Origin: Branchiostoma belcheri
Taxonomy: Eukaryota
Assembly (NCBI RefSeq): GCF_001625305.1
Contig: NW_017804120.1
Location: forward strand, 291,553-355,552
Direction of reading: 5' to 3'
Length of the DNA: 64,000 bases
Below, one piece after another: positions 9,735 through 48,851 of this stretch (positions within the stretch are counted from its first letter, which is position 1; every line of letters begins with the position of its first letter). Position numbers and translations under genes: made by a program. The notes under the pieces were generated by a model. That model worked only from the letters and a program-made list of their open reading frames with translations. It had not been told where the DNA came from and ran no database searches.

Positions 9735-9872
9735 GTAAAAGTGGGGTTCCTTGGCCTGAGTGACGGGAAGCGTGATCCTGAGATAGTCCGTGTGCAGCTG
9801 ACAGACGACAGTCTGGTACTACAGAGAGAGGAGACAGTCTACGGGAACTCACTGGCCGCTATAAGCTCACAG
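9735..9872 (+). CDS. Internal coding exon, 138 nt, phase 0 to 0, encoding VKVGFLGLSDGKRDPEIVRVQLTDDSLVLQREETVYGNSLAAISSQ. First exon of the plus-strand PDZ gene visible in this window.
   Basis: Pyrimidine tract plus AG acceptor (ttcactgttgcag|gt) and a GT donor (cacag|gtgtgt). Only one open frame. Joins in frame to the exon at 10918. Confidence 0.45.
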
Positions 9873-10917: not shown

Positions 10918-10974
10918 GAAAGATCAGTTATTCTGAGAAGACAAAAATCTGGAGGTCTGGGGTTGAGTATCATG
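10918..10974 (+). CDS. Coding exon encoding the start of a PDZ domain (ERSVILRRQKSGGLGLSIM).
   Basis: Acceptor ttttcttcag|g and donor atcatg|gtaggt; 57 nt in phase 0. The R-x-V-x-L-x-K-x-GLG-S-I motif is the PDZ beta-A/beta-B signature. Confidence 0.55.
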
Positions 10975-11619
10975 GTAGGTTCACCATTTCCACCCCTGAG
11001 TCCTCTTTTATTCATATAATACCTTCTCCAAGAAGGTTAATACGATTTTGGTTGAAGTTCTAGCTTGCCTGAAATTTGTGTTGTGTCATCTCAATTCTGT
11101 TTCAGGTAATATTATGTTAGGGGGAGAATGTTTAGCCTATAAAATGCTTTTTCCTGCATTTTGAGGGGCAAATTTTGCTGCTAGACTAAATGAATTTATT
11201 TTAATGATCTCTTTCCATATCTTTATATGCCAATTTTGGTCTGTCAAAGATGACGGATTGTCCAAAATTTTTTCCAGCGGCAAAATTCCATCAAAATTAA
11301 TGATACAAAGACGGACGGTGGTTAGAACCCAGGTTTTGGTATTACTAAGCAGTTTGTGGTTGAACACCATAACTCAAGAATATGGATATAGATTGTCGGA
11401 TTTTTCAAATCAGAAAAAGTAGTGGAATAAGAGCCGAAAACCAAGAAAATAATTTGGTTTGGCCTGCCGCCATACGTGCTCAGTTTCTCCGCTGATGTGG
11501 AAATGATCCGGTCGTTTTCGTGCCCGCCGTCCGAAGCGTTGCTCTATCACTCTGTTAATCCCCGTGGAATGGACACTACCAGCCCAAACAGGTTTATTAT
11601 GGACTCAGGGTCCACGTTA

Positions 11620-12220
11620 TTTGGCGCACATGTCAGTACAATGCCGCAGGGGGAAGGGGGTGGCTTGGGTGAAGAATTTCAAGACTCGAAAGACTTTGTA
11701 CAGATTTGGTTTCCAGGTTGTGGACAGAAAATTAAAGTGACAGTGACAGTAAGAGAAGACATACTTCAGCATTCAAGATTTGGATTTGAATTTATATCGT
11801 AATTTGATGGACATGTCCGTACAATGCCGCAGGGGGAAGGGGGTGGCTTGGGTGAGGAATTTCAAGACTTGAAAGACTTTGCACAGATTTGGTTTCCAGG
11901 TTGTGGACAGAAAATTAACGTGACAGTTGTAGAAGACATACATTTTGTACTTAAGGATTCAAGATTTGGATTTGAATTAGGTGGTTATTTGGTGGACATG
12001 TCAGTACAATGAAATAGGGGGAAGGGGTGTCTTGCTTAAAGAATTTCAAGCCTCAAATTAAAGTTTCTAAGATTTTAGATTTTCACATTATTAGAATTAG
12101 ACTTTGATTTTTATCAATAATGAATTTTTAGTCCTCCTGATTTGGTGCACATGTCAATGCAATGTTAAGGGGAAGGGGTCTGAGGCTTGAATGAAGAATT
12201 TCAAGCCTCAAATGTATAGA
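11620..12220. repeat. Tandem repeat, about 3.2 units of roughly 185 bp.
   Basis: Repeated gtcagtacaatgccgcagggggaagggggtggcttgggtgaagaatttcaagac... ORFs 11476..11802 and 11824..12012 are artefacts. Confidence 0.75.
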
Positions 12221-12691
12221 TTTTCTTGTTAAAGAAATTGCAATGTTTTCTTAGCTCTTATGAGAAAGAGTTACTATTATATGATTCAGGAATTGAACAC
12301 ACTACTCCACTACTGGTGGACTAGCCCTATCTGGCACTGTGTGGCCCAAGAGGTACAGAAACAAAGATGGGCACTGCCCCTATTTACCAAAAGTTGTGAG
12401 AAGAATTGCAACATATAATGTATGATTGTAAGTCATGCATGTGTTATGTTACAACCATAATAATTACAGTACTATGAGTATTGATATGAATTCATCTTCT
12501 TCCTCCAAAATGCACATTAGCACACTCAAGGTCAATAAGCACAACCTTGTTATCATGAAGGTCATGATTGACGATGTTCAAGTACACCTGTAGATGATGG
12601 ATATTGGGGGGTGAATTTTACTGTTAGCAATAAAAGTATTTAAGCAGATCAATTCTTGAAACCCTATTACGTTTTATTGTACATCGTAAAG

Positions 12692-13125
12692 TAGGGCTGC
12701 GTACCTAAACGCAACATCAGGTACAGGTACAGGTACCGGTACAGAGGTTTAGGTACAGGTCCGGACCTGTACCTGTACCTGAACAATTTGACAAATTAAC
12801 ACGTGTTCTTCACTTTTTCAATCATGACACAAACAATAATAAAGTGTTGACAACTTGTCAGTATCTTCCAATCACAACCCTGGATCAGCCACACTCTCGC
12901 GATGTCTCGTGAGACTGAGGATCTCAAATCAATCGACGGTGTTTACGTCTTTTCCAGTGCTAATTTTTCGTCTTTGTGGTAGGATTTACCTATCTTTAGT
13001 CATATACATGGTGTAAACTAGCTATTTCGGTATATACTCGTTACTTCATGATCCGGTATTTTGGACCTGTACCGAAACGATTTTTACGGTATTGGACCGG
13101 TACAGTGTACCGGTCCGCAGCCCTA
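12692..13125 (+). mobile_element. hAT-like MITE family D, about 435 bp, termini TAGGGCTGCGTACCTAAAC...GCAGCCCTA. It is related to family B.
   Basis: Perfect 8-bp target-site duplication TCGTAAAG. The second copy lies 1.45 kb away in inverted orientation. Confidence 0.8.
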
Positions 13126-13407
13126 TCGTAAAGCCATATTACTGGCTGGTTCCTCAATGGTTTACAAGCAGAATTCTGCCCAATTTCGATTCTTCTATGT
13201 CTTCTCTTAAAGGCATTCAATGCAACTTTAGGGAAGCAAAACAAATATTTTGGATGAGGAAATCTGTATGATATTGACATTACAGAGAAGCAAGTGATGT
13301 GAGGCATCTTTTTTATTTTTTGGGTACCACTCATACATGTAATTAGCTAGAACCAGCCTAGTAATAGTAGTATGATACAAAACAACCAACCGTTTTCTGT
13401 CAGTAAC

Positions 13408-13791
13408 TAGTGATGCATTACCTAAACCCAATTTTAGGTTCAGGTCCGGATTCAAGTCCAGAGGTGGACTTGTAAGTCCAGACCTAAACCCATGGCATAT
13501 ACAAAATTGCATGTTGGCAACCTTGGAATGTTGTCTGGGTGAAACTTTGGCCACATAACATGGAGGCCGGTACTTGACGTCGATGCCCGATGGCAATGTT
13601 TTCTTCATTTTGCAGCAAATATGTTGCAATCTACGGAAGGTTTTAGGTGGTTTGGAAAGAAAAGGGGTGTGTGAAATGGTCTTTTATGGTTGGTATAAGT
13701 CCGGACTCGGTTCTTTTAGGTTTTTTTGGACTTGAACCGAAACATTCTTACAAGTCCGGATCCAAGTCCAGTGAACCGATATGCAGCACTA
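13408..13791 (+). mobile_element. hAT-like MITE family B copy.
   Basis: Flanks TCAGTAAC/TCAGTGAC (7 of 8 match) around the B termini. Confidence 0.7.
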
Positions 13792-14577
13792 TCAGTGACA
13801 TCACATTTTTGCCTCACAGATATCAGTATGCTATGGGATAGGATTGCTACATCAAAAGAATGACCAGAAAATTGATGTTGAAAATCCAGTTTTGCCGCCC
13901 TGAAATTGCAATTTGGATGCCTTTAAGATTAAGAAACTGCCTTAGACATTCAGTCTAGACTTTCTTAGAAATTTGACTGGGAAGGGCTATATCTAGATGT
14001 CTTATCACATTTACATGATTGTACCTCTAGACTTCTTTTGAATGGAATATCCATTTGACAAATAGCTGCACACCTTCAAAACATTTTAGCTATGAAATTA
14101 AAAGCCTCATTCTATAGCTAGCTCATATGAAAGTGCAATTAATATCAAAGTGTCGTGCATTCTTTGATTCAACACTGTAAATCTATTCAAGGAAATCCCA
14201 TGAGAAGTAAAATCAAGTACATTGAAATGGGGAGAGAAATCTTCAAGATTATTCAAATATGCACCAACAACCACCTTGTCAATGTCATTTTTCTTAATTC
14301 ATGTAATATATGTAATTTTATGTCATTATAAACCATCATGGTAACAGCCTTCTATTCGCCATATATTACTAACTGTTATTGAGCACTACACATGCCAAAT
14401 AGTCATAAATCCACAGCCAATTTGGCTGCCATCATCACATACTTTTATTTGACTGTCACAGCAAATAAAACTCAAATTACATGGTGTAAAAGTTATGATT
14501 TTCTACACGTACATGTTCTTATAAGCCCCTTTTATTAGAGATTATGTAGTGCGTCATACTTGTACATGTATCTGAAC

Positions 14578-15013
14578 TAGGGCTGCGGACCGGTACACTG
14601 TACCGGTCCAATACCGTAAAAATCGTTTCGGTACAGGTCCAAAATACCGGATCATGAAGTAACGAGTATATACCGAAATAGCTAGTTTACACCATGTATA
14701 TGACTAAAGATAGGTAAATCCTACCACAAAGACGAAAAAATAGCACTGGAAAAGACGTAAACACCGTCGATTGATTTGAGATCCTCAGTCTCACGAGACA
14801 TCGCGAGAGTGTGGCTGATCCAGGGTTGTGATTGGAAGATACTGACAAGTTGTCAACACTTTTTTATTGTTTCTGTGTCATGATTGAAAAAGTGAAGAAC
14901 ACGTGTTAATTTGTCAAATTGTTCAGGTACAGGTACAGGTCCGGACCTGTACCTAAACCTCTGTACCGGTACCTGTACCTGTACCTGATGTTACGTTTAG
15001 GTACGCAGCCCTA
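14578..15013 (-). mobile_element. hAT-like MITE family D copy 2, inverted relative to 12692-13125.
   Basis: Perfect 8-bp target-site duplication ATCTGAAC. Confidence 0.8.
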
Positions 15014-15339
15014 ATCTGAACCAAAGCATAGAAAGATGTGCCAAGCAATTCCCACTTGGCCTTCCTACACTAATACTATCTCAAAGCTGTAGGTATTGTC
15101 ATGTCGTAACTTCATGATACAAAGTAAACGTGACATTACAAAATGTTACAATTTCATACACGTATGCATTCTTTGATTCCTTTCGTTTCATACATGTAGG
15201 TATTTCGCAGTGCGTCATTTTTTATTTTAGCCAAAGGGTGGAACGATGATTGTGCCAAGCGATTCCCAGTTGGCTTCCCTAGACTGGTCTATCTCAAAGC
15301 TTTGCTGTCACCATGCCATAGCTTTATTTGATACCAAAC

Positions 15340-16272
15340 TAGAGTTCCCCGATCTCATACCTTCGCCAAATGATGTTAATCTTTATGACGTACGCGACTG
15401 ACAAAGTTTAGATTAGATTATCCCCCCCTGATTTAAGAAATAGGAACCTAATTTTCATGAATTATATTGTTTTATCATAATCTCAACCAAAAGACAAAAA
15501 GTCTTATATTAACAAAGAATGCATTCTAGCATTTCCTAATAAATTATGCAAATGAGGTCCTGATTTCAATAAATTATGTTTAATGATGTTCACCTCAATT
15601 TAACTTTCAAATACCACAAGTATGAAATTCCAGGCAGTTATCATTACATAATTATAAAATTTTCTCATTAATTATGCAAATTAAGTTCTTTTTAACATGA
15701 TCAATATCTTCCTGTGTTTCTCTCGTTGTCAATTACCAATGTCACAAGCTTCAATTGTCCTATCATGGAATGCAGCTGATTTATAGAATTTCCCCATAAA
15801 TTATGCAAATTACATCCATATTTGCATAATTGTCACATAATTATATTAAGCATCACGTAAGCTACCTACATACCAAAAATCACGACGATCCGTCAACCGG
15901 TTCTTGAGTTATCCCCTTTTGAATATTTTCAAGAATTTATCCCTGCAGTTCCAGAGCAAGCCTCTAGGGGGCCTAAACTCACGCCACTTCTTTCCCAGCA
16001 CAAGAGCTACCTACCATCTAAATTTCAATACCATAGCATGTCTAGATCATGAGATATCAAAACCGGAAGTTCAGCTGCAGTACCATAATAAGCCGCTAGG
16101 GGGCCCAAAATCTAATCATTTTGAGGTCTCGTCAAGACCTACCCACCTACCAAGTATCAAGACAATCCATCAAGGCCTTCTCAAGTTATCGTGTTTACAG
16201 ACAGACACACACACACACAAACACACACATACACGAACGCCCCTGAAAACATAACCTTCTTGGCGAAGGTAA
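15340..16272 (-). mobile_element. Family F element, inverted copy. Together with 8656-9579 it forms a roughly 7.6-kb inverted pair.
   Basis: Reverse complement of the 8656-9579 copy along its full length, including the (CA)n tract at 16201-16234. Confidence 0.65.
16201..16234. repeat. (CA)n-rich microsatellite inside the inverted family F element.
   Basis: Read directly. Confidence 0.9.
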
Positions 16273-16451
16273 TAAAAATGAAATTACCGACTGACTGAAT
16301 TTACAATAATAAAAAAATTGTATTGCCTACATTCACTCAAATTCTTAAATCACTCGTGCATCATTTTTGTATCTTTAGCCAAACTATAGAATGATTTTGT
16401 GTCTTAGACCATGTTGATTTAATTATATTTATTATTAGATATAACATGTAG

Positions 16452-16691
16452 GAACCCCAAAACTGATGCGAGCTTGCGAATTAAAAAAATTATTGGCAAA
16501 AAAATTGCCTTCATAGAGTATAGTGTGGCGAATAATAGCCTCCTCGTTTTTATTTCTTTATATTTTCTTCTGTACCTTTGGAGTTGCTTAAATGTACAAT
16601 TTACAGTATGGTCGAAAACTTTTTTTGGAAACAGACATCTGAAAATTCATGCGGGCTGAGATGTCGTCCATATAATGAAATCAACATGGCC
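16452..16691 (+). mobile_element. 3' partial copy of family E MITE.
   Basis: Right TIR and about 200 bp homologous to 56900-57122. Confidence 0.5.
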
Positions 16692-16699
16692 TTACCCAA

Positions 16700-17140
16700 A
16701 ATATAGCATGAAGATTCAGACAATTCCCGGTGGCCAGTCCTACACTAACTCTATCTCCGGGCCACGCTGTCATCATGATCAGTCACTTAGTCATCAGCTA
16801 TTGCCACAAGAAAGTGCCGTGCCAAGCCGACAAGATGATACCTACTGTAACTGACAGGGGACAACAAATTTTTGTGTTTACTAAAGGAAAACATATTGTT
16901 TTTTGCTCTGTTTCATCTCCATTCCAAACACTGACCTCTGATCTGGTCAATGACCTGAACCAGACAGTCTCTCACCATGGTAACTGGTGTTGGGTAACAT
17001 AATGTTGCAATTTTATAGTAAGAGGGATTTATACTCCTGTCACCATATATGTGAATGTGTTTAAGTAAGAATTAACAGATCAGACCATATGTGGAGGTAA
17101 ACATTATGCATTTGTAAATGTTAACTTTCTTGTTTTACAT
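16700..17140 (+). repeat. Interspersed repeat family G, about 300-450 bp. Further copies at 17200-17350, 31075-31375, 33360-33680 and 33700-33990.
   Basis: Shared blocks cagacaattcccagtggccagtcctacactaac and gttgcaattttatag...gaattaacagagcagaccatatg. ORF 16730..17002 is an artefact. Confidence 0.55.
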
Positions 17141-17661
17141 TGTTTTGTATTTTTTTTCAAGATTGGGCAAAAATCTTATGTCATCCTTAAAAATTCAGCT
17201 CTAGAAATTACATGACCAGCCAGACAATTCCCAGTGGCCAGTCCTACACTAACTGTATCTCCAAGCCATGCTGTCATCATGATCAGTCACTTACTCATCA
17301 GACAGTCCCAAAATAAAGCGCCGCCAGGGTGATTCCAACTGTAACTGACGGGGGGCTTTTCTTCCGAAATGAGCGGTAAATCCCCAGCCGGCGCGCAGAT
17401 CAAATGACAGGGAACGAACGTGGCACCAAGGGCACCCTGGGTAATCCCTCAGGCTGATAGGGTCTGAAGTCTGTCAATGCCGGAGGGTCGGAGTTAAGGA
17501 CACGGTTCGGAGACAGGAAATATCAGCTTTATTGACGCAGCAAAAGTATTGCAACTTTAGTATGCAAGCACGTCTAACCCTTGGGAGATGGGAAACAACA
17601 GGTACTTAACTGTGTGGATAGTAAGGATGTATGAGTGTATGGTCAACTAAACACTAAAAAC

Positions 17662-18016
17662 TAGTGCTGCATACCTAAACCCAATTTTAGGTTCAGGTCC
17701 GGATTCGGGCCAGAGGTTTAGGTTCAGTTCCGGACTTGTAAGTCTGGACCTAAACCCATGGCATATACAAAATTGCATGTTGGCAACCTTGCAATGTTTT
17801 CTGGGTGAAACTTTGGCCACATAACAATTGGAGGCCGGTACTTGACGATGCCCGATGGCAATGTTTTAGGTGGTTTGGAAAGAAAAGGGGTATGTGAAAT
17901 GGTCTTTTATGGTAATAAGTCCGGACTCGGATCTTGACTTTTAGGTTTTTTTGGACTTGAACCTAAACATTCTTACAAGTCCGGATCCAAGTCCAGTGAA
18001 CCGGTATGCATCACTA
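17662..18016 (+). mobile_element. hAT-like MITE family B copy.
   Basis: Perfect 8-bp target-site duplication CTAAAAAC. Confidence 0.75.
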
Positions 18017-18294
18017 CTAAAAACTATAATTTTATACAATATATGATATACAATAAATAAATTGTACTCAAACTATAAGCCTATTACAATCACATGGGGC
18101 TAATCATGGGTTTAAAAATGATTTTAGAGTAATGATAGATTAATTACTAAATAATGACTGAGTGTATGTACATAAAAAAAATTACAAGGACTTGAAAAAG
18201 ACAAACAATGAAGAGCAATTAAAAATGACATATACATGTAGCAATTTGAATGTAACGTCACTTCTCTAGTCTGAATAGTATATTATACATGTAA

Positions 18295-18470
18295 GTCACT
18301 GAATGAAAAGACTCCTTTTACGCAACTTTTATTCAGCCCAACGTTTTGGTGACTGTCTGTCACCTTCCTCAGGGCAATTCTGAGTCAGACAGAGGGTCAC
18401 CGAAACATCGGCTGCTGAATAAAACATTTAGTTGCGTAACAGAACCCTTTATTCAATGACTAAAGCTGTT
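18295..18470. mobile_element. About 175-bp hairpin-forming repeat, family K. A half-copy lies at 41222-41290.
   Basis: Inverted arms of ...ttattcagc.ga.gtttcggtgac..tctgtca... around the centre agggcaattctgag. Sequence ggtgaccgtctgtcaccttcctcagggcaattctga is shared with 41235-41285. Confidence 0.5.
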
Positions 18471-19079
18471 TCCAAAGCCTGATCAAAATTTTCATTTTTA
18501 TCATTCCACTGCCCGATTCAAAATATGCAAATCAAGTTGATATGAGTTCTGGAATTACCGCCCCAGGGACCTAATACGATAATGCGCTAGTTCTCAATTA
18601 AGGCAAACTCCCAGTAGTCCGATTATGTACAGAAACTGAAATTAAATCTGAGATAAAGTCAGACTGTGTGACAGATTGACACGTCAAACGCAGATTTAAG
18701 TGCCCGTCTTGCTCTTGGGCAGCGGCGGATCCTCCCGGTAATTTATCTTAAGGTTGCGGCAAACCTTAAGGCTTCTTCTTTCAACAACTACTCTTCCAAG
18801 AAAAATGATCAAGAGAGATATTGGTGACAGTTTTGGCACACTTCACTATCTTTATCTTATAATATGTTTTGATTTTTTGTTGCCGGCACGTTTCTTGCCT
18901 TCTAATTTCTAGGACAGGACTTAATGTGATAATCATCATGATAGCTCTCGAAAAGGTGAGACATATTTAGTATTAATATCAAAATAGATATTTGGCAGTC
19001 CACCCATTTCAATAACACAAATGTCAAATTTTTTATGTTTGTGCATTTTGTCGTCTTTTAAATCATGGTCCATGCATCA

Positions 19080-19910
19080 CAATTTCCATTTATAAATTAA
19101 ACCAAGTCAGACGGAGTTACACATTCCAGTCCAATTTTGGTTGCTCAAAAGTTCTGTAGTGATCACTAATTTTGGTTGCTCAAAAGTTCTGTAGTGATCA
19201 CTATCTAAAACAGAAATGCTTCGAGTGTGTCTTTGGGACTAAAATTAAAAAGTGAAAGGCACCCTACATGACAGCTTTGATGGACCGTGCATAAAATTTC
19301 TGTTCATAAAACCAAGAGTTACACATTCAAGTCCTATTCTGGTTGCTCAAACTTCAAAGTTCCTTAAAGCGATCACTATATCTACAGGATGAAGAGGCCT
19401 AACACAGAAACATTTCGAGTGTAACTTTGGGACTTTTAAGTAAAAGGCACCTGACATGACAGCTTTGATGGACCGTGCATAAAATTTCTGTTCATTAAAA
19501 CAATGCTTCAAGTATGACTTTGGGACTATCAAGTAAAAGGCACCCTACATGACAGTTTTGATGAACCGTGCATAAAATTTCTGTTCATAAACAAAGAGTT
19601 ACACATTCAAGTCCTATTCTGGTTGCTCAAACTTCAAAGTTCCATGTAGCGATCACTATCTAGAGCATGAAGAGGCCTAACACAGAAACATTTCGAGTGT
19701 GACTTTGGGACTTTTAAGTAAAAGGCACCTGACATGACAGCTTTGATGGACCGTGCATAAAATTTCTGTTCATAAAACCAAGAGTTACACATTCAAAAAC
19801 GTCAAAGTTCCACAGAGATCGCTATCTAGAGCAAGAAGAGGCCTAACACAGAAACATTTCGAGTGTGACTTTGGGACTATCAGGTAAAAGGCACCTGACA
19901 TGACAGCTCT
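19080..19910. repeat. Satellite-like tandem array, about 4.5 units of roughly 180 bp.
   Basis: Repeated gacagctttgatggaccgtgcataaaatttctgttcataaaaccaagagttacacattcaagtcctattctggttgctcaaa... Confidence 0.75.
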
Positions 19911-19979
19911 TAGCACTCTATCAAGCGTTTCATATCGATTGCCGCCTGGTATGATATATAATCCGTTATGATAAGCCGC

Positions 19980-20240
19980 CTTGCTGCGTGACCCTTTCTA
20001 TACTCCCGCGGGCGCCGCTAGCCAAGGAACGCTCAACCGTCATCGCTTGAGGAGTCACGATAACGGGATTTTTTGCCACGCGAATGCTTCAAAGTCGCCG
20101 TCGGTTGGCGGTAAATATCGTTTGTCGTGATCCGTGTCGTGAGGGACGCGGTGTTCCGAGTAAGTGGACAAGAGAGGGATGGCCGAACTACGGACAGTTT
20201 GGCAGGGGCGGCGCGAGGGTAATGGGATGTCTGGTTTGGT
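19980..20240. promoter_or_regulatory. CpG-rich island of about 260 bp in an otherwise CpG-poor, AT-rich intron. It may be an unmethylated regulatory element or an internal promoter.
   Basis: I counted more than 25 CpG dinucleotides in about 250 bp (cccgcgggcgccgctagcc, gtcgccgtcggttggcgg, ccgtgtcgtgagggacgcggtg, ggcggcgcgaggg). Flanking sequence has very few. Confidence 0.35.
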
Positions 20241-20660
20241 AACATATAATATCCCACGGGTCAAAACTGTAAATGTGAATAGAACACTTAACTGCAATGA
20301 ATCACCTTGTTGATGGATATAAAAAAATGGCCCAAACTCATATATGACATTGGGAGTGCAAGATACCTAAGTGAGAGCCTACATGTAAGTTGTTGCAATT
20401 TGCACTCTCTAAATGCAGACTCCTTGTATCTGTACTGTCTGGTTTGGTAACATATAATATCCCACGGGTCAAAACTGTAAATGTGAATATAACACTTAAC
20501 TGCATTGAATCAGCTTGTTGATAGAGGTAAAAAATGGCCCAAACTCATATGACATGGGGAGTGTTGTACAAGATGCCTAACTGAGAAAGTTGAATCAGAT
20601 GCAATTTGCACTCTCTAATATTAAATAAATGCAGACTCCCTGTACAACCTGATTGTCTGT
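20228..20660. repeat. Two tandem copies of a roughly 210-bp unit.
   Basis: Sequence ctggtttggtaacatataatatcccacgggtcaaaactgtaaatgtgaata.aacacttaactgca occurs twice. It lies just downstream of the CpG-rich segment. Confidence 0.7.
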
Positions 20661-22318
20661 ACTGTCTCAACATCTCAACCAGAAGGAGATCCAAGCTTCA
20701 AAGACTTCTCAAGAGGTTTGTATCAAAATAAAAATGTCTTATTAGGAATCATAACAATCTCACGAGTCCACCTAACCTAGGAGGATCTGCATGGGGGAGT
20801 AGTGGTTACGAATTACGCAAAATTCTCACAGCCCATTACAAATTACATTTAACACTCAATGACATTTCTACCTGAGTCAGGTGAGGAAATACCTATAGGA
20901 GCCAGAAAAGGTCCTTCAGCCCCCAAAATTTATGCCCCTTTCAACCAAACCAACCCAAAAAAAAGGCAATTAGCAAGGGTCTGCAGTTTTTTCTAAGGTC
21001 GGTTGGAAAACAGGAAGCACAACATTTTTTTTCCTAGGCCTTACACGAATAGGACTGTGCCTGTTGCAGACTATATTTTTCCGACACAACATTTGGAAAC
21101 TACAGACTGGATGTTAACCTTATACAATGTATGTGCAAATATGACCTTATATGAGACGTTCTGCCGAAGTGCTATGCACAATACATTATAGGTTTTGCGC
21201 AGGTGCAGTACGTTATGCCGACGTGCTTATACATGTATGAAGAGACCAATAAAATTTGGTTATATACATAATTATGTATATTATAGATTTTACATGCCCG
21301 AAGCAGTTTTATCTTGGCATTGGGGGTCACAGCTAAATGCCACATTTTGCAAACACAGGAAAACCCATCACCTTAGAAACTCTCCAGAGAGCCAATGTCT
21401 TGACAAAACATTCAATATCAGTTCACTTCACCTTGCCTGCCCTTTTGTTCGCTGGCGGAGGTCAAATAGCTCTCAAGGTCAAAGGTTTCCACAACGTAAC
21501 AATCTTCCAATCTGCTGGTCGACACTTCACTCAATACATTAGGCTGGGGGAAGGGAGGGTTCTGTTTGTGGGACAGAGCAAGAACAAGAAATGCTTTTGA
21601 AAAAAGAAAGAAGAGAAAAAGATAATCCCTACTTTCCCAACCACAATTTTTTCTGGACTGAAACAGGAAACACAACATTTTTTTTCCTAGGCCTAACCAG
21701 TAACCTTGTTACGTGGTGACCAATGGTTGTTCTGCCATGCTACCCTCTTTCCCCCACAAATTAAAAACAAGACTGGCAATGAAAACATACATTGCCATGG
21801 CGACGGTGGTTGCTGTTAGGGTTATTGTTTGCATGGCACTGCCATAATTTCATGATTTTGAGGAAGACAGATACAGTGCACTCCTCCCCCGAGTGTACAG
21901 TGAACAAGCCCCGGGGTCACAGAAAGTAGGGCCATCGGGCCAGAGAGGTCGTCCCAAGGGTTTCCAGGAATGTGGGCATAGATGTGGGTCAGAGACATGC
22001 CTGTGGACATTCCATTCCTGTGGACAAAATGCCTGTACCATTCCTAGAATTCTAGCAAACTGCACACAATACTGTACCATTAGGCTCCTCCCTGAGATGT
22101 CGCCAAAAATCCCCAAAGAGACTGACTAATATGTTGACATTAGGGTACAGTCTGACTACAGCAAACCCCATCCACAACTTGAAGCATTCCAAGTAATTTG
22201 GTTCCTGATGTCTCAATAATGGTGGTTAAATGGCTGATTTGTCAAGTGACAAAGTGAAACTGACAGGACGGTGGAAAGGAGGGTAATTTACGTGCATGTA
22301 AATATGCTGGCCTGGTAC

Positions 22319-22715
22319 TAGTGCTGCATACCTAAACCCAATTTTAGGTTCAGGTCCGGATTCAAGTCCAGAGGTTTAGGTTCAGTTCCGGACTTGTAAG
22401 TCCAGACCTAAACCCATGGCATATACAAAATTGCATGTTGGCAACCTTGCAATGTTGTCTGGGTAAAACTTTGGCCACATAACATAGAGGCTGGTACTTG
22501 ACGATGCCCGATGGCAATGTTCTTCATTTTGCACCAAAGATTTTGCAATGTACGGAAGGTTTTAGGTGGTTTGGAAAGAAAAGGGGTATGTGAAATTGTC
22601 TTTTATGGTAATAAGTCCAGACTCGGTTCTTGACTTTTAGGTTTTTTTGGACTTGAACCTAAACATTCATACAAGGCCGGATCCAAGTCCAGTGAACCTG
22701 CCAAATGCAGCACTA
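22319..22715 (+). mobile_element. hAT-like MITE family B copy.
   Basis: Perfect 8-bp target-site duplication CCTGGTAC. Confidence 0.8.
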
Positions 22716-23290
22716 CCTGGTACAATACTAGTGGTAGAGTGTGCCATTAACAAATTCCATATTATCATGATAATTCATTTATAACATGCACTGTAAGGTT
22801 TATGAAGCCTTGTACAAGTAAATATTTCTTTTAACATGATGTAGAAGAAAATTACGTGTGGTATTATTATCTAATGGCAAATTCAAAAATCTAAATCATT
22901 TGGTATCTTACTTATTTGTAAGAGTTGTACATACGTTTTATGATAAATTCCGGGTAGCTGCAACACATTATGTATAATCAAAATGGTGAATTACGCTCTA
23001 TGCAAAATGCACCAATAACGCTCTACGTTGAATTAGTCTAAGAGCGGTTTGTCTACGCTCTACATGGAATTAAAACGGCCGATTACGCTCTACGGAAATG
23101 GGCATGTGGGCCCCCCTATCTTTACAAGATTCTTCCAAAAGATAGACACCAGGGAATGACATAATCCACTCGTACAGGATATTATTCTAACATATACCCT
23201 TTGAATGATAGATGGTTAACAGTGTGTAATTTAAAGTTTGTTAGTATTATTAGGAGAGACATTTCTAATATATTGCTGTTGCCCTGCTAG

Positions 23291-23654
23291 GGCGACACCA
23301 ATTTAATTTCTTGGTTAACAGATTCGCCCGCTTCATTTTTTTCTGATTTGCAAAAAACAAAAATCAGAATCAACTGCAAAATGCTGATATTTTGCCCAGA
23401 ACAGTTAAAAACAGTCCTTTTCTTTCTAGTTGTTACAGTTATTCTATCTTTCAATGCAGTGGTATAATTAAAAGTTCAAAATTCATTGTTTAAATTTTGA
23501 ACCAGCCTGGTGTGTTGACTTCAAGGCTCCTATCGTACCATTTTGGACTATAATAGGATGCCTAGGCCTGTTTTTATTTTTATTTTTTTTTGCCCGCCTG
23601 CTTCATTATTTTTCTAGAAAAATCCGTTAAGCAAGAAATTAACTTCGTGTGGCC
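23291..23654 (+). mobile_element. MITE family A, copy 2.
   Basis: Same TIRs and internal sequence as 126-474. TAG flanks. Confidence 0.8.
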
Positions 23655-23850
23655 TAGGTACTCAATACCTAATTTAGAGGCATAAAAACTACTTTGCCTG
23701 TGCAAGAACTAATCGATAAGTCACTGTGCGGAATATAATTACCATCGCACATTAGAATGCCAAGCAAAGTTCACAGAATAGACTATGTATTAGTATGGAG
23801 AGCGGCTGGAAAGTCAAGGAGGCCATAAGCTAAGAAAGTTCATGCATAAA

Positions 23851-24246
23851 TAGTGCTGCATACCTAAACCCAATTTTAGGTTCAGGTCCGGATTCAAGTC
23901 CAGAGGTTTATATTCAGTTCCGGACTTGTAAGTCCAGACCTAAACCCATGCCATATACATAATTGCATGTTGGCAACCTTGCAATGTTGTCTGGGTGAAA
24001 CTTTGGCCGCATAACATGGAGGCCGGTACTTGACGATGCCCGATGGCAATGTTTTCTTCATTTTGCAGCAAAGATTTTGCAATGTACGGAAGGTTTTAGG
24101 TGGTTTGGAAAGAAACGGGGTATGTGAAATGGTCTTTTATGGTAATAAGTTCGGACTCGGTTCTTGACTTTTATGTTTTTTTGGACTTGAACCTAAACAT
24201 TCTTACAAGTCCGGATCCAAGTCCAGTGAACCGGTACGCAGCACTA
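23851..24246 (+). mobile_element. hAT-like MITE family B copy.
   Basis: Perfect 8-bp target-site duplication TGCATAAA. Confidence 0.8.
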
Positions 24247-24643
24247 TGCATAAAGTATTGTGTTTTACAATAGTTGCTGGAACATTGTTATAATAAGACA
24301 TGCATACCCAATTTTACCTTTCTAGTTATATATTTTTTATAGATGTATGTAAAGAAACCAGAACGAAAATATTCAAGAATGTAAAGAACCAGACATTCAG
24401 CACCAAGGACAGAACCTGTATATATTCAGCATTGTATTTTGTGACAAAATTTAACCATATCTCTTTTTAAATGAGGATTTTCTTTATAAAACCATATCTC
24501 TTTTTTGATAAAGAGATACTCTTATCTCTTTTTGATTATCTTAATGACATCAAGATAGCTTTTGTGCCTTCCAATCATTGTAAACTTTTGAAGACAACTA
24601 TAAAATAAAACCACATGATTGTTGACTCTACTCTTGAAGAGCA

Positions 24644-24896
24644 CGTCGGCAGAACGTACTGCACCTGCGTGAAACCCGTAATGTATTGTGTATAGCACTT
24701 CGGCAGAACGTCTCATATAAGGTCGTATTCGCGCATATAAGGTTAACACTCCGTCTGTAGTTATCAAATGTTATGTCGGAAAAGATATCCTCTGCAACAG
24801 GCAAAATTCTGATGCAATGTTGACCAAAAATCTTTCGAAAACCGCAAAAATCCAGGGTTCTGCGCAGGCGCAGTACGTTCTGCCGACATGCTCTCT
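24644..24896. mobile_element. Palindromic MITE family J, about 250 bp, with TIR GAGCACGTCGGCAGAACGTACTGCACCTGCG. A fragment also occurs at 21080-21240.
   Basis: About 30-bp TIRs. The internal sequence is inversely homologous to 21080-21240. Confidence 0.55.
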
Positions 24897-25149
24897 TGAA
24901 GTGAAGTTGGTTGCTCTAAGAGTAATTGCCATCTCATGAAATTGTGGTTGTGTCCTAGAACTAGATTTCCTAGACGTATAAATATCCAATTTGGATTTCC
25001 AGACAATTTCCTACATGTTAAGTTGTTGGTATTTGTCATGTATACAGATTATTTGGTTCAAATGTTATGTACATTGTGTAGTTGAAGTTAAGATGAAATA
25101 TTCTTCCCGTACATTTTGATGTAGCGCTATATGGTAGTGCTCATCCAAT

Positions 25150-25400
25150 TCTATAGCCCTTGAGCCACACAGTTCTAGCTTTAGGATTGTGTGTTCAACT
25201 ACCATTTTGCTGTACAGGGCAGTGCCTCTCCATTTCCATAGCCCTCGGGCCACACAGTTGTAGCAGTGGGGGTGTGCGTTTAACTACCATTTTTTGTATA
25301 CATGTAGGGCAGTGCCTATCCATTGCTATAGCCCCTGGGCCACACATTTGTAGCAGTGTGTGTGTTCAACTACCTTATAGTACCATTTTTCACATACTTG
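25150..25400. repeat. Three tandem copies of about 85 bp. They lie next to a minus-strand tRNA-like fragment at 25435-25520.
   Basis: Repeated ctatagcccttgagccacacagttctagc...caactaccattttg. The adjacent reverse complement contains a B-box-like ggtttgaatcccggc. Confidence 0.55.
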
Positions 25401-25726
25401 TACTGTAAGTGCTGAATGCTAAGCAGAGAAATGTGTATCATGTACATGAATATGTATTCGGCCGGGATTCAAACCCACAACCTTCAGAATACAAAGCAAG
25501 CACTCTATCAAACTTGAGGCACAGGTATTATACCTTAATGGTCCATATGACAATGTTCTAAAAAAGCTCTAAGACTTATCTTTTCTACCCAGGGCGGTGC
25601 TGAACACAACATCCCAGTCCTGATATCAAGTATAGTCAAGGACCAAGCTGGTGAGGACATTATTCTGTACACTCTCAGTGTCACCACAGGGCTCGAAATA
25701 CTTTTTTTTCTGCATACCTTCACTGG

Positions 25727-26121
25727 TAGTGCTGCATACCTAAACCCAATTTTAGGTTCAGGTCCGGATTCAAGTCCAGAGGTTTAGGTTCAGTTCAGGA
25801 CTTGTAAGTCCGGACCTAAACCCATGGCATATACAATATTGCATGTTGGCAAACCTGCAATGTTGTCTGGGTGAAACTTGGCCACATAACATGGAGGCCG
25901 GTACTTGGCGATGCCTGATGGCAATGTTTTCTTCATTTTGCAGCAAAGATTTTGCAATGTACGGAAGGTTTTAGGTGGTTTGGAAAGAAAAGGGATATGT
26001 GAAATGGTCTTTTATGGTAATAAGTCCGGACTCGGTTCTTCACTTTTAGTTTTTTTTTTACTTGAACCTAAACATTCTTATAAGTCCAGATCCAAGTCCA
26101 GTGAACCGGTATGCAGCACTA
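25727..26121 (+). mobile_element. hAT-like MITE family B copy.
   Basis: Perfect 8-bp target-site duplication TTCACTGG. Confidence 0.8.
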
Positions 26122-26329
26122 TTCACTGGTGCAGGTAATATTGGGAAATACCGCTTTGCTTTGAATGTAGGTTTTTTAAAAAAGCAAGTATGCATGAAAC
26201 TGCATAGAAAGAATTTTATTTATTATTTCACTCATTCTGGTAATAATAAAATGTCATTGAGTGAAGTAGATATAACTTGAATCATCAGTGCAACAAAAAT
26301 TTACAAGTATGGATCGGATTCAATGTACA

Positions 26330-26860
26330 TGTAGGTTAGGTGCAGGTTAGACATCAGAAATACCTGCACAGCTCCAATTTTACCTGCATATACCCAGTAC
26401 ATGGCCCAGTGCAGGTTAGGTGCAGGTAGACATCAGAAATACCTGCACAGCTCCAATTTTACCTGCACTAACCTGCATATACCCAGTACATGGACCAGTG
26501 CAGATTAGGTGCAGGTAGACACATCAGAAATACCTGCACAGCTCCAATTTTACCTGCACTAACCTGCATATATACCCAGTACATGGACCAGTGCAGGTTA
26601 GGTGCAGGTAGACATCAGAAATACCTGCACAGCTCCAATTTTACCTGCACTAACCTGCATATACCCAGTACATGGACCAGTGCACATTAGGTGCACGGTA
26701 GACATCAGAATACCTGCACAGATCCAATTTTACCTGCACCTACCTGCATATACCCAGTACATGGACCAGTGCAGGTTAGGTGCAGGTAGACATCAGAAAT
26801 ACCTGCACAGATCCAATTTTACCTGCACCTTACCTGCATATACAGGTGGTATTTCCAGCC
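26330..26860. repeat. Tandem array, about 6 units of roughly 88 bp.
   Basis: Unit gttaggtgcaggtagacatcagaaatacctgcacagctccaattttacctgcactaacctgcatatacccagtacatggaccagtgcag. Overlapping ORFs are artefacts. Confidence 0.8.
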
Positions 26861-27156
26861 CTGCACCATATAAAAGCAACACGCAATAAATTGCCAGGCT
26901 GTATTTCCGTAGGCGATAGCTGCATGAACATTAATTTTCCCTTGCATGAAAAGACCATAACCACATCAGATGCCATTTTCAATAACAAATAACACTTTGT
27001 ATGAATACCTGCAAATGACTAGCCTGGTTACCAAAGCTATTTTAGCTGACTTTCTTCCTCTTTGCAAATAGCTATTTGTGGAGTTTCTTTGACATTCGTC
27101 CTCTATTTGATTGAAAATATTCTGCACCTTAAAATAGTTTTGGTAACCAGGCATAA

Positions 27157-27528
27157 GGCCACAGCAATTTAATTTCTTGGTTAACGGATTTGCCCGCTTC
27201 ATTTTTGTCTGATTTGCAAAAAAAAAAAAAAATTCAGAATCAACTGCATAATGCTCATATTTTGCCCTGAACAGTTGAAAACAGTCCTTTTCTTCCTAGT
27301 TGTTACAGTTATTCCATCTTTCAATGCAGTGGTATCATTAAAAGTTCAAAATTCATTGTTTAAATTTTGAACCAGCCCGGTGTGTTGACTTCATGGCTCC
27401 TATCATACCATTTTGGGCCATAATAGGATTCCTAGGCCTGTTTTGTTCGGCCACCCGCTGCACTATTTTCTATTTGTCTAGAAAAATCTGTTAACCAAGA
27501 AATTAAATTGGTGTGGCCTAAGGCTAGC
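27157..27528 (+). mobile_element. MITE family A, copy 3.
   Basis: Same TIRs and TAA flanks. Lies about 200 bp upstream of PDZ exon 27730. Confidence 0.8.
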
Positions 27529-27729
27529 AAATGACATGTTTTGATACAGTTACTATCATAAGTTTATGATACATTCTAATGTGCATATATCATAGTAGTT
27601 AATAGCAGACACACTTATAAATTCTATACCAGCATGTGCTAATGATTTTTAAAAAGTGCAATTTAATATAGACTCTAGAAAATTATTTGAAGAGAATGAC
27701 AATTTTTCCCCCCTGTTTTTCTAATGTAG

Positions 27730-27773
27730 CTGACCAGACTGGCCAACTTTTCGTTGGTGACGCAATAATCAAG
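27730..27773 (+). CDS. Coding exon for the PDZ middle segment ((A)DQTGQLFVGDAIIK).
   Basis: Acceptor ctaatgtag|c and donor atcaag|gtatgc; 44 nt. Enters with a 1-nt carry and leaves in phase 0. GDxIxxVNG is the PDZ consensus when joined to the next exon. Confidence 0.6.
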
Positions 27774-27995
27774 GTATGCTTGTTACTCATGATGTTTTGC
27801 CCCTGGGTGCTTTATTATTAAATCCTAATCAAACTTAAATCTCTAATTAGAGCAAGTTATCACAAAAGTTTCCAATTAAAAAATGATAATACTGCAGGCA
27901 ATGCATCCTCATGTCTTTTTTATTAGCTACAGTAAAGTGAAATCCCCCCCCCCCAAATCCTTTATGGTTTGTCCCTATGTTCCTGGAATTGGTAA

Positions 27996-28407
27996 GGCCA
28001 CACCAAGTAATTTTTATAGATGATGTCCACGCGCGCATTGATTTTGGCCTGCATGTTTCCAGAAAAAAAGAAGATGAAATTCTGCTCCCTGTAACTATGA
28101 CCAAATAGTCACGACAGTGTCATCGGTAATGAGAAATATGAGCACAAGAAACAGGACAGGACGACAACTGCTGTTCCACTGATTTATTGCTGTTTTCATG
28201 ATTAATAAAAGACTTGTTGATTGTTACTCTGTGCTCTCTCATTCAATTTGTGTCCTAACATTTGTCGTCACTTAGAATTTAAAAATATTTCAAATCTAGA
28301 CATCTTGTTTTGGTTGGCCCTTCTCTGTTTTTTGTTTTTTTTCGCACTCTCGCATTAGATTTAGGGTCTCCATAGAATGTCATACATAAATATTACTTGG
28401 TGTTGCC
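27996..28407 (+). mobile_element. MITE family C copy.
   Basis: TIRs and internal homology to 3901-4381. Confidence 0.75.
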
Positions 28408-28674
28408 TTAAAATCCTACCAGTGTCAGGATAAGCGTCATAAATTTTGAAGATGGAGATTTGTAGGAATACAGCCTAGGATAGACGGTAATCTCTGTTAT
28501 TTCCCTAGCGCGTTGTGATTCCTGAATATATGCGTCGACTCCATCCCGGAAAGCACATCAAAAACTGATCCAGGTGCACTTTACTGAGACACGGTGCTTC
28601 GTCAATTCAGCTGCTGTATTCCTTATGAGTGATAGGGCGCCTGTGTGCATCTTTAACGCTGTTATGTTGAATTT

Positions 28675-29317
28675 CTTAAGGTGTCCTCCCTGGCTAATTT
28701 GGCATTTTAGGTTTCCATCGTTTTCTCACACAGAAATTTAGAAAGAACTGTAGTTGTACTGAATATTGATACCTGGGTACAAAAGGGTTATGAATATGAT
28801 TTTATGGACCATATGGATGACGTCATCACATTTTATTGCCCTAAATGTAATTATCTTTAAAGTTATAATATAGCACTAAGTAACTAAAATAAAAGTATGA
28901 TTTTTATGTGCATAATGGTCAAAGCTACACGTACAAACGTACGTTTGCACAAATTGATATCTACTAATAATCCGTAGTTATTAGAGAATAACCTAATTAC
29001 CTAATTAAAATTTAGTTATTCTCTAATAACTATGGGTAATTAGTAGATATCAATTTGTGCAAACGTACGTTTGTAGCTTTGACCATAATGCACATGAAAA
29101 TCATACTTTTATTTCAGTTACTTGTACCAAAGTGCTATATTATAAATTTAAAGATAATTACATTTGGGGCAATAAAATGTGATGACGTCATCCATATGGT
29201 CCAAAAAATCATATTCATAACCCTTTTGTACCCAGGTATCAATATTCAGTACAACTACAGTTCTTTCTAAACGATGGAAACCTAAAATGCCAAATTAGCC
29301 AGGGAGGACACCTTAAG
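28675..29317. mobile_element. Foldback element, about 640 bp. It is a near-perfect hairpin with roughly 310-bp arms and a centre at about 28995. It contains ATGGATGACGTCATC, which includes a TGACGTCA palindrome.
   Basis: The left arm is the reverse complement of the right arm almost base for base (cttaaggtgtcctccctggc ... gccagggaggacaccttaag). Confidence 0.75.
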
Positions 29318-29412
29318 ATTGTAGAGCGTCAGAGATGTCAGGATGAGAAGACTGATAGGTGATATGTATGTAAATGTGATTAAAGTTTAGTTGGCTTTAT
29401 CTCTTTCTTTAG

Positions 29413-29454
29413 GTTAATGGTGTCAACGTAGAGCATTCGACGCATGATGATGTG
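29413..29454 (+). CDS. Coding exon for the PDZ segment VNGVNVEHSTHDDV.
   Basis: Acceptor ctttctttag|g and donor gatgtg|gtgagt; 42 nt, phase 0 to 0. Classic PDZ VNG..v...H..aV motif. Confidence 0.65.
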
Positions 29455-29917
29455 GTGAGTTTGGTTCACTTTGGTTTCACTTATTCTCAATACAGTTTGT
29501 ATGTGTAATATTACAACGATACAAAAAGTCAATTTTCTGGTTATTTCTTTACAAATAAACTCTCCATTGCGAATAAGTGTCATTCAGGAAGTGGAGGTGT
29601 TAAAATATGACACCTCATAACATAAGTGTGTTTAAAAGCTGGAAACACAGCTGTCAGCCAAGTTTGTTTACATTCTAGTATTTTGTGGTGGTATCACAAA
29701 CTAAGTGCACACTAAGGAACTAAGCAACTAAGGAAAAAGGTTGATTTTTCAAAGGATCCAAAAGTCAGATACATGTGCAATTTGTAATTTGATAAAGCAA
29801 TCAGTGGTCGTCTGACCTCACATAAAAATCTGTTGTTGATGATTTTTTTATTCATTTATTAATAATGACAATTTTCATGATTTAGCCAAAGTTTGATTTT
29901 TTTTGGTTAAAACTCAG

Positions 29918-30002
29918 GTACAACATCTGAAGAACTCCCCTGATGATGTAAAGTTAACTGTTAGATACTACAGAGCAGCAACCCCCTACCTAAGAGCTCC
30001 AG
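29918..30002 (+). CDS. Coding exon for the PDZ C-terminal segment VQHLKNSPDDVKLTVRYYRAATPYLRAP(G).
   Basis: Acceptor aaactcag|g and a strong donor ccag|gtaagt; 85 nt, leaves with a 1-nt carry. The VKLTV beta-strand ends the PDZ fold. Confidence 0.65.
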
Positions 30003-30032
30003 GTAAGTCAAGTCTTTCTGTTGAGGTGCTAA

Positions 30033-30406
30033 GGCCACACCAATTTAATTTCTTGGTTAACGGATTCGCCCTCTTAATTTTTTTCTCATTTGCAAATAAA
30101 AATAAAAATTCAGACTGAATCAACTGCAAAATGCTCATATTTTGCCCTGAACAGTTGAAAACAGTCCTTTTCATCCTAGTTGTTACAGTTATTGCATCTT
30201 TCAATGCAATGGTATCATTTAAAGTTCAAAATTCATTGTTTAAATTTTGACCCAGCCTGGTGTGTTGACTTCATGGCTCCTATTGTACCATTTTGGGCCA
30301 TAATAGAATGCCTAGGCCTGTTTTTATTTATTTATTCTTTTTGCCCACCCGCTCCATTACTTTTCTAGAAAAATCCGTTAACCAAGAAATTAAATTGGTG
30401 TGGTCT
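30033..30406 (+). mobile_element. MITE family A, copy 4. Inserted 31 bp downstream of the 5' splice site of PDZ exon 29918-30002.
   Basis: Same TIRs and TAA flanks. The ORF-track ORF 29903..30118 runs from the exon into the MITE. Confidence 0.8.
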
Positions 30407-36260: not shown

Positions 36261-36855
36261 AAAAACAAGTCTTGAATTGTGAATAACTACAAAATTAATG
36301 ATAGAAAAAGGCTGGAAGATAATATTTATTTATTGTGTCTCAGAGATGAAAGAAAGGACAAAAAAATGTGGGAAACTTATAATTTGGAATCTTTTTTTTA
36401 GATCTTTAAGATGTGAAAAACATCTGTAATGTTAAAAACATCTGTCATATAATGATGTAGATACATACGTTTACATTAAGCTGCCTGACAGGGACCCATT
36501 GTTTATTCAGAAGGTGTTTCTGAACCACCTGCCCTTGCACTTGAAATGCCAAAATCACTCCATGAAATTAGTCCTCAGTTCCATGCATGGTAATGAGGCT
36601 GATGGGTTGTTCCAGACACTAAGTTGGGGAGGGGCAAAACACACTTTGGAAATGCAGACTCTGAGATACAAACTATATCAAACAGTCAACTTACTTCACA
36701 ATCCATTACCTTCACTCAAATACAACACATATGTGTATTAGATGTAAATATAGGATGACATTGTACTGTAAACGACAATTTTTTGTGGTACTTTAACTTT
36801 TTTAAAACTTTTTTATATTCATAGTTTTCACAGTCACTTCTGCACTGCAAACTTA

Positions 36856-37217
36856 GGCCACACCAATTTAATTTGTTGGTTCTCGGATTCGCCTCTTTGT
36901 TTTTTTCTGATTTGCAAAAAAAAAAAATTGATTCTGGTCCTGAATCAACTGAAAAATGCTCATGTTTTGCCCCCCAACAATTGAGGAAAGTCCTTTTCTT
37001 CCTAGTTGTTACAGTTTTCCCATCTATCATTGCAGTGGTTTGATTAAAAGTTCAAAATTCAATGTTTAAATTTTAACCCAGCCTTTTGTGTTGACTTCAT
37101 GGCTCATTTTGTAGCAATAGGATGCCTAGACCTGTTTTTATTTTTATTTTTTTTGCCCTGTCGCTTCATATTTTTTCTGAAAAAATCCGAGAACCAACAA
37201 ATTAAATTGGTGTGGCC
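36856..37217 (+). mobile_element. MITE subfamily A', with TIR GGCCACACCAATTTAATTTGTTGGTTCTCGGATTCGCC.
   Basis: TIRs plus an internal sequence homologous to family A. TTA flanks. Confidence 0.75.
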
Positions 37218-37547
37218 TTAATATCATTACTGTGAACAATTTAATAATTTGCCGACTTTCTTTTTGCTGCACCTGCTGCTACTTCCATTGTATAGTTGCG
37301 CAAACATGTCCATTTTTCTCAGACCACAAACTTTTGCTACCGCACACATACAGTCAGTACAGAATGTACAATAACTTGTACTTTTGAGATGCCTAAATGC
37401 CCAATATATAACTTATGTATAGTATATGTTTGACCTGTAATACATCAATTTTTTAACTTCCTTTAACATATTTCAACCCATCCTTAATACTGGTAGTAAT
37501 ACTTTCAACCTGCTTATTATTTTGACACCAAATTTGTTGTTTTCAGT

Positions 37548-39909: not shown

Positions 39910-40200
39910 GGCCACAGCAAGTAATTTTTATGGATGACATCAGCGCACGCATTAATTTTTGCCTGATTTTGAAAAAAAACAAACAAGAAATTTTGTTGCC
40001 TTCTGACAGTGATAAACATGCCGAAAATGCACAAATATGTCTGTTGCCATGCCGGAACGTGGATGGCAGATAACTGAAGAGAGTAGACAAGAAAAGGCTC
40101 TGATTTAATGTTTAAAATTTGTTTCCTACTTTGATGCAGTGATATGTGATGCTGGTTGTGTATAATAATCATGTAGTCATGTTGGTTGAGTGACAAGGCT
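39910..40200 (+). mobile_element. 5'-half fragment of a C' MITE.
   Basis: Left TIR and about 250 bp homologous to 38446-38700. No right TIR. The ORF-track ORFs here are artefacts. Confidence 0.5.
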
Positions 40201-40389
40201 GGGACTCACACATAAAACTTCTTGCTATAATGGACTATACCGACTCATCATCTGAACAGGTACGATATAATATGAAAATGGTGTATTGGACAAGTAACCC
40301 GTTTAAATGGTCAGAATACACTCCATTCAATACATAAAATATCAACAAGACCAGAATTTTTAGATATTATATTGTCCTTGGTTGCACAG

Positions 40390-40459
40390 GCTGAGGTGAC
40401 TGATTATGAAGATATGAGCTGTGAGATGGTCACAGAAATCATGACCTTAGGCTATTCAG
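40390..40459 (+). CDS. Coding exon, 70 nt, encoding AEVTDYEDMSCEMVTEIMTLGYS.
   Basis: Acceptor gttgcacag|g and donor ttcag|gtaaga. Only one open frame. The 1-nt carry matches the next exon exactly. Confidence 0.45.
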
Positions 40460-44877: not shown

Positions 44878-44888
44878 CTTGATTCCAG

Positions 44889-46795: not shown

Positions 46796-46804
46796 TGTCT
46801 GTGT

Positions 46805-48844: not shown

Positions 48845-48851
48845 TTCCCAG

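Follow-up and report, generated by a model that had tools for sequence, protein, structure and literature searches.

Whether a PDZ domain scattered over a handful of very short exons is complete, and to which protein it belongs, is the question raised by the 64,000 nucleotides (nt) of Branchiostoma belcheri DNA analysed here (hereafter the window; NCBI RefSeq assembly GCF_001625305.1, contig NW_017804120.1, positions 291,553 to 355,552 of the forward strand). A previous sequence-only reading had joined four such exons and postulated a further one, starting in phase 0 and ending with a 1-nt carry, somewhere in 10975-27729, where it had not been found. This exon exists and was located by tblastn at 25593-25650. 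With it, and with one more exon upstream, the interval 9735-30002 (+) comprises six consecutive coding exons, all with AG/GT boundaries and compatible phases, which, with a probability of about 0.93, represent the 5' part of an amphioxus (Branchiostoma) gamma-syntrophin gene.

The coordinates of the four exons joined earlier (PDZ exons 1, 3, 4 and 5 in Table 1) proved to be right. Each is preceded by AG and a polypyrimidine tract, is followed by a donor of the form GT(A/G)(A/T)G and continues the reading frame, and the translation given for them, ERSVILRRQKSGGLGLSIM followed, with the carried G, by ADQTGQLFVGDAIIKVNGVNVEHSTHDDVVQHLKNSPDDVKLTVRYYRAATPYLRAP, was reproduced. Strand beta-A, the carboxylate-binding loop (GLGL) and the start of beta-B are encoded by PDZ exon 1, the end of beta-B, beta-C and the start of alpha-A by PDZ exon 2, and alpha-A together with beta-D by PDZ exon 3, while PDZ exon 4 contributes beta-E and the start of alpha-B, including the class-I His, and PDZ exon 5 the remaining part of alpha-B, beta-F and a C-terminal extension. 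The join of the five exons (57, 58, 44, 42 and 85 nt) yields ERSVILRRQKSGGLGLSIMGGAEHNIPVLISSIVKDQAADQTGQLFVGDAIIKVNGVNVEHSTHDDVVQHLKNSPDDVKLTVRYYRAATPYLRAP, one complete class-I-type PDZ domain.

The tblastn probes used at the outset were syntrophin PDZ sequences, which served as probes only. The gamma-type probe gave a match at 25584-25655 (expect value, E, 3e-6), and five independent database orthologues reproduced the match at 25593-25650 with E values of 1.5e-5 to 5e-3. In addition, every AG...GT segment of 40-100 nt in 10975-27729 with a length of 1 modulo 3 and an open phase-0 frame was listed and compared with the orthologue segment using BLOSUM62. Exon 25593-25650 scores 82, the runner-up among the 329 candidates 26, and the controls reach at most 28 (opposite strand) and 26 (20 shuffles); it is thus the unique candidate for the missing piece of the domain. 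Two further tblastn matches, 19300-19371 and 26873-26935, were rejected: they lie inside tandem repeats, their E values range from about 0.4 to 14 according to the probe, and neither is one of the best-scoring candidates compatible in splice sites and phase.

The exon reads ttttctacccAG|GGC GGT GCT GAA CAC AAC ATC CCA GTC CTG ATA TCA AGT ATA GTC AAG GAC CAA GCT G|GTGAGG, with the acceptor ctacccAG|GGC and the donor CTG|GTGAGG, and its last G completes an Ala codon with the CT of the next exon. The gap had been estimated at about 25 residues and expected to hold a generic "...PGG" motif; it actually amounts to 19 residues and a split codon, and the segment found is of the syntrophin type (...SSIVKDQAAD...). 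The exon belongs to about 350 nt of unique sequence, bounded by an 85-nt tandem array on one side and a miniature inverted-repeat transposable element (MITE) on the other, which is why it was hard to spot.

A second donor, at 25677, would lengthen the new exon to 85 nt (25593-25677) and add nine residues (GEDIILYTL) before ADQTG, either constitutively or alternatively. The longer segment is indeed open, ends before a GT and keeps the 1-nt carry, but no orthologue has an insertion at this place, KDQAADxTG being contiguous in hemichordate, insect, spider, fish, newt and marsupial sequences. Moreover, TCA|GTGTCA (25678) is a weak donor compared with the near-consensus CTG|GTGAGG (25651), and the corresponding exon of the tarpon measures exactly 58 nt, so that the longer form has only a slim chance of being the correct one.

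The claim that the joined peptide is a PDZ domain was borne out by the profile check. With the new exon the peptide scores 67.1 bits against PF00595 (cut-off 23.2 bits) and covers model positions 2-81 of 81. The four-exon join scores 43.5 bits and covers positions 37-81 only, that is, the C-terminal half of the Pfam domain; hence, a piece was really missing. Among solved structures the best sequence match is the PDZ domain of human SNTG2 (PDB 7qql), with E 5e-32 over 87 residues and no gap across any of the joins. Both sequences contain the carboxylate-binding loop GGLGLSI, GGAEH..P, KDQAADQTG and the His of alpha-B, and they differ by a few substitutions (SIM for SIK, SSIV for SKIF). Only the N-terminal ~141 residues of the protein are encoded in the window.

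An AlphaFold2 model based on a 48-sequence alignment has a mean predicted local distance difference test score (pLDDT) of 87, exceeding 90 over residues 1-80, and shows the order of strands and helices of a PDZ domain (DSSP: E2-7, E16-21, E26-33, H38-42, E50-54, H64-73 and E77-83, with a two-residue strand at 57-58). It replaced a first run, with a shallow alignment of insect-like sequences, which reached a pLDDT of 65 only. When the model was compared with the PDB by Foldseek, the top 11 matches were all syntrophin PDZ domains, SNTG2 being the first (template modelling score, TM, 0.85; 62% identity), and TM values of 0.8-0.9 were obtained for many solved PDZ domains. The carboxylate-binding loop G12-G13-L14-G15-L16-S17 and H64 are present, at positions invariant or nearly so among relatives, and all PDZ residues invariant among relatives are kept. 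The ligand groove is put together from separate exons, with the GLGL loop and beta-B supplied by PDZ exon 1 and helix alpha-B with His64 by PDZ exons 4 and 5, while beta-C and its flanks come from PDZ exon 2.

The PDZ sequence is closer to the gamma class of syntrophins than to the alpha or beta class, as judged by sequence comparison. Against solved structures it scores 113 bits with SNTG2 and 95 bits with SNTG1, compared with 86, 81 and 73 bits with SNTA1, SNTB1 and SNTB2, respectively. The PDZ domains of alpha-1- and beta-syntrophins (PDB 1qav, 2pdz, 7p70, 2vrf) have the same fold (TM 0.84-0.88 to the model), and these proteins follow the same domain logic, with a PDZ domain inserted in a PH domain. 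The window carries the gamma-type motif GGAEHNIP in place of GGRENKMP of the alpha and beta classes, the latter being a form used as a probe. Syntrophins had already divided into beta and gamma classes in cnidarians, the gamma class thus predating bilaterians (PMC10293626).

The exon upstream of the PDZ exons codes for the N-terminal half of the split PH1 domain of syntrophins and the linker to the PDZ domain, which it joins in phase. It was matched by tblastn with residues 38-73 of a Ptychodera gamma-2-syntrophin-like protein (E 1.6e-8) and with a spider orthologue (7e-6), and it also aligns with the N-termini of spider and moth gamma-syntrophins. The 141-residue join was used as a query in an exhaustive HMMER search of 1.8 billion representative sequences, in which the top single-stretch match was the gamma-2-syntrophin-like protein of Ptychodera flava (XP_070533553.1, P0095; 62% identity over query residues 1-139 of 141), the closest full-length protein. 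Its architecture is PDZ, PH_17, PH and Syntrophin_4th; for the residues that precede VKTG at its N-terminus, no equivalent was found in the window. The other single-stretch matches were proteins named as gamma-syntrophins, from a moth, a spider and marsupials.

The same search returned many multi-PDZ proteins with high summed scores, as would be expected if the domain belonged to some other, non-syntrophin PDZ protein. These scores, however, are sums over 5-17 separate repeats at about 30-35% identity, whereas the single-stretch matches spanning the upstream exon and the PDZ domain (50-62% identity) are all gamma-syntrophins. Since syntrophin PDZ domains also lead both the sequence matches (9 of the first 11 among solved structures) and the fold matches, and a fish SNTG2-like gene has the same exon layout, such an origin is extremely improbable. 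By homology with characterised syntrophins, the gamma-syntrophin proposed here would be an adaptor associated with dystrophin or dystrobrevin, which may recruit partners through the binding of their C-terminal tails by the PDZ domain; a role as a neuronal scaffold would likewise be predicted from homology.

The fish gene in question is the SNTG2-like gene of the tarpon, Megalops atlanticus (L004), whose exons, once reconstructed and joined, yield the annotated protein P0227 as far as the last split codon. The first five exon sizes and all phases are identical in the two species (Table 1), including the exon for the N-terminal half of PH1 and the 57-, 58- and 44-nt PDZ exons; the last PDZ exon differs by one codon in length and agrees in phase. 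The introns, on the other hand, differ: before the 58-nt exon, 461 nt in the tarpon compare with 14,618 nt in the window, and after it 3,996 nt with 2,079 nt. The tarpon gene has an additional first exon of 69 nt, which ends at a GC donor (TGG|gcaagt, L004 2069/2070) in the first coding intron. Amphioxus and vertebrates have most of their intron positions in common. As the layout matches that of the tarpon, the architecture dates back at least to the chordate ancestor, and the tiny exons are an ordinary conserved chordate gene architecture of an already known kind. The sequence-only reading was therefore right about a PDZ domain split over tiny exons, while neither the gamma-syntrophin identity nor the conserved chordate layout was recognised there.

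In insect-type gamma-syntrophins (Drosophila Syn2 type: contigs L001 and L002 and the Glossina protein P0004) the PDZ domain is 65-67% identical to that of the window. Three of the five introns of the window (before 'ER', at IIK|VNG, and 5 codons plus 1 nt after TP(Y/F)) recur there in position and, in the insect-like contig L001, also in phase. Both introns flanking the 58-nt exon are absent from L001, a single exon spanning ER... to ...AIIK, and this absence in insect-like lineages appears to be due to intron loss. In L002 (metagenome contig ERZ28569222 scaffold_242388) the IIK/VNG intron is shifted by one base, to phase 1 instead of phase 0, which could be a small intron sliding or an ambiguous boundary.

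The chief value of the result lies in annotation. A 58-nt exon amid transposon copies and 14.6 kb away from its upstream neighbour is easily missed by gene predictors and readers alike, and its omission leaves a broken PDZ domain. The match between amphioxus and a teleost means that exon sizes and phases have been stable for more than 500 million years, with intron length varying about 30-fold. Knowledge of syntrophins or of PDZ domains is left unchanged: this is an ordinary conserved gene in a transposon-rich genome, with no novel biological feature.

Several observations nevertheless weigh against the assignment to the 5' part of a gamma-syntrophin gene. The joins were deduced from genomic sequence, and two word-indexed protein database searches returned no amphioxus syntrophin protein that would confirm them; the donor at 25677 is phase-compatible as well. 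No start-codon exon was identified by homology (tblastn) upstream of 9735. At the other end, tblastn revealed no exon for the C-terminal half of PH1, for PH2 or for the C-terminal domain in 30003-64000, and the stretch downstream of 30002 carries a partial PARP4-like gene on the same strand instead.

Two weak matches in the downstream stretch were discarded. The one at 52204-52233 ('PGVRWSKHYC') is repeat-like and has no usable splice context, while that at 61700-61738 ('ERRWGGVSMVSLL', E 0.72) lies 13 nt downstream of a stop codon, does not fit in phase and is similar mostly beyond the only usable donor, and was taken as a chance similarity. In an intact gene, at least 34 kb of intron would follow position 30002, and the C-terminal half of PH1 (PF18012), PH2 (PF00169) and the syntrophin C-terminal domain (PF23012) presumably lie past the end of the window.

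The PARP4-like gene belongs to a block, 40170-51146, that is 90-99% identical to B. belcheri scaffold JALCYT010000026.1. The B. belcheri locus L003, used for a cross-haplotype check of the exons, lacks the PDZ exons. On the plus strand this 11-kb block codes for approximately the C-terminal three-quarters of the PARP4-like gene model P0209, from about residue 339 of 1346, and the first ~338 codons of the model have no counterpart in the window. A chimeric transcript, in which the donor at 30002 is spliced to the first PARP4-like exon (acceptor near 40390), was considered and rejected, as GGC is then followed by TGA, an immediate stop.

These circumstances lend some substance to another reading, according to which a rearrangement truncated a gamma-syntrophin gene and left the six exons as its 5' remnant, the 3' part having been lost or moved where the PARP4-like block now sits. 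No syntrophin exons appear in 30003-64000 despite good conservation of the PH2 and C-terminal motifs in the probe orthologues, collinearity with the B. belcheri scaffold is limited to the block and breaks off on both sides of it, and the PARP4-like copy itself is incomplete. Yet all six exons are open, with canonical splice sites and the invariant PDZ residues kept. Vertebrate gamma-syntrophin genes have very large introns, and transposons are visibly enlarging the introns of the present gene, so that a next intron of more than 34 kb is plausible. A truncated remnant is thus considered unlikely, if somewhat less so than the other alternatives discussed here.

The PARP4-like block could be a partial segmental duplicate nested in an intron of the syntrophin gene, or it could reflect a structural variant between haplotypes or a difference between assemblies. 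Rather far-fetched readings are that the weak donor at 25677 is used in some tissues to produce an isoform and, separately, that the block is a recent partial duplicate inside the syntrophin gene. Were the isoform real, its nine residues would lie between beta-C and alpha-A, beside the ligand groove, and would amount to a splice-regulated change of PDZ specificity.

The sequence-only reading had also described 10975-27729 as an intron of roughly 16.7 kb filled with MITE, short interspersed nuclear element (SINE) and satellite sequence. The interval stands as given, but it is made up of two introns, of 14,618 and 2,079 nt, with the 58-nt exon between them. Its repeat content stands too, in the form of MITEs with terminal inverted repeats (TIRs) and target-site duplications (TSDs) and of tandem arrays; the repeat fractions in Table 1 are lower bounds, counting matches to elsewhere in the window or to a 41-kb B. 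belcheri locus. The SINE component does not: no SINE with a tRNA-like head was seen, neither ARAGORN nor Rfam found a tRNA-like sequence in the interval, and the claim is therefore unsupported there.

Two MITE families were recognised. Family A (about 395 nt; 14-nt TIRs, TAGTGCTGCATACC; 8-bp TSDs) has five copies in the interval, while copies of family B (about 370 nt; TIRs of about 36 nt, AAGGCCACACCAATTTAATTTCTTGGTTAACGGATT) occur in three introns. The tandem arrays have periods of 89, 85, 183 and 278 nt. The near-perfect complementarity of the arms of the foldback element suggests a very recent origin. Exon sizes and phases were inherited from the chordate ancestor, and the lineage-specific part is intron size: MITEs, the foldback element and tandem arrays have enlarged the intron preceding the 58-nt exon to 14.6 kb.

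Table 1. Coordinates of the features in the window, and exon sizes compared with those of the tarpon gene.
Feature	Position	Strand	Description
PH1 N-terminal-half exon	9735-9872	+	138 nt, phase 0 to 0, AG/GT, VKVGFLGLSDGKRDPEIVRVQLTDDSLVLQREETVYGNSLAAISSQ
PDZ exon 1	10918-10974	+	57 nt, phase 0 to 0, ERSVILRRQKSGGLGLSIM
Intron	10975-25592	+	14,618 nt, at least 52% repeats
PDZ exon 2	25593-25650	+	58 nt, phase 0 in, 1-nt carry out, GGAEHNIPVLISSIVKDQA plus G
Intron	25651-27729	+	2,079 nt, at least 62% repeats
PDZ exon 3	27730-27773	+	44 nt, phase 1 in, 0 out, (A)DQTGQLFVGDAIIK
PDZ exon 4	29413-29454	+	42 nt, phase 0 to 0, VNGVNVEHSTHDDV
PDZ exon 5	29918-30002	+	85 nt, phase 0 in, 1-nt carry out, VQHLKNSPDDVKLTVRYYRAATPYLRAP plus G
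Window exons			138/57/58/44/42/85 nt, entry phases 0,0,0,1,0,0
Tarpon (Megalops atlanticus) exons			138/57/58/44/42/88 nt, entry phases 0,0,0,1,0,0
MITE family A, 14,618-nt intron	13395-13791, 17661-18020, 22319-22716, 23851-24250		
MITE family A, 2,079-nt intron	25727-26125		TSD TTCACTGG; begins 77 nt past exon 25593-25650
MITE family B copies	121-475, 23288-23656, 27151-27524, 30029-30406, 36851-37222, 56344-56717		
Foldback element	12692-15013		2.3 kb, arms of ~440 nt, 99% complementarity
Tandem arrays, 14,618-nt intron	11609-12212, 19250-19778, 25119-25378		
Tandem array, 2,079-nt intron	26351-26873		89-bp array
PARP4-like exons	~40330-48959	+	includes the 812-codon FG- and proline-rich open exon 42077-44515

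Some further observations concern the repeats. The termini of the foldback element (TAGGGCTGCGTACCTAAAC) resemble the TIR of MITE family A, and the element may be related to the parent element of this family. MITE family B is abundant both in the window and in B. belcheri locus L003 (several copies), with 75-93% identity, and one of its copies begins about 27 nt past the donor of PDZ exon 5. A tRNA-like sequence at 51938-52010 (+), located between MITE copies, scores 37.7 bits with Rfam; there is no ARAGORN call for it, nor for any other part of the entire window, and it may represent either a relic of a tRNA or the head of a SINE.

Finally, three hairpins at 51203-51290, 52509-52598 and 52743-52834 (+) match the Rfam mir-2060 family with 73-79 bits. 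This family is mentioned in a study of B. belcheri (PMC5650284), and the hairpins, together with the 90-99% identity of block 40170-51146, point to B. belcheri or a very close amphioxus as the origin of the DNA. Two of the matches fall within a tandem minisatellite, which also contains a repetitive open reading frame of 184 codons (52519-53073); being placed inside the minisatellite, these hairpins are therefore units of the repeat array.

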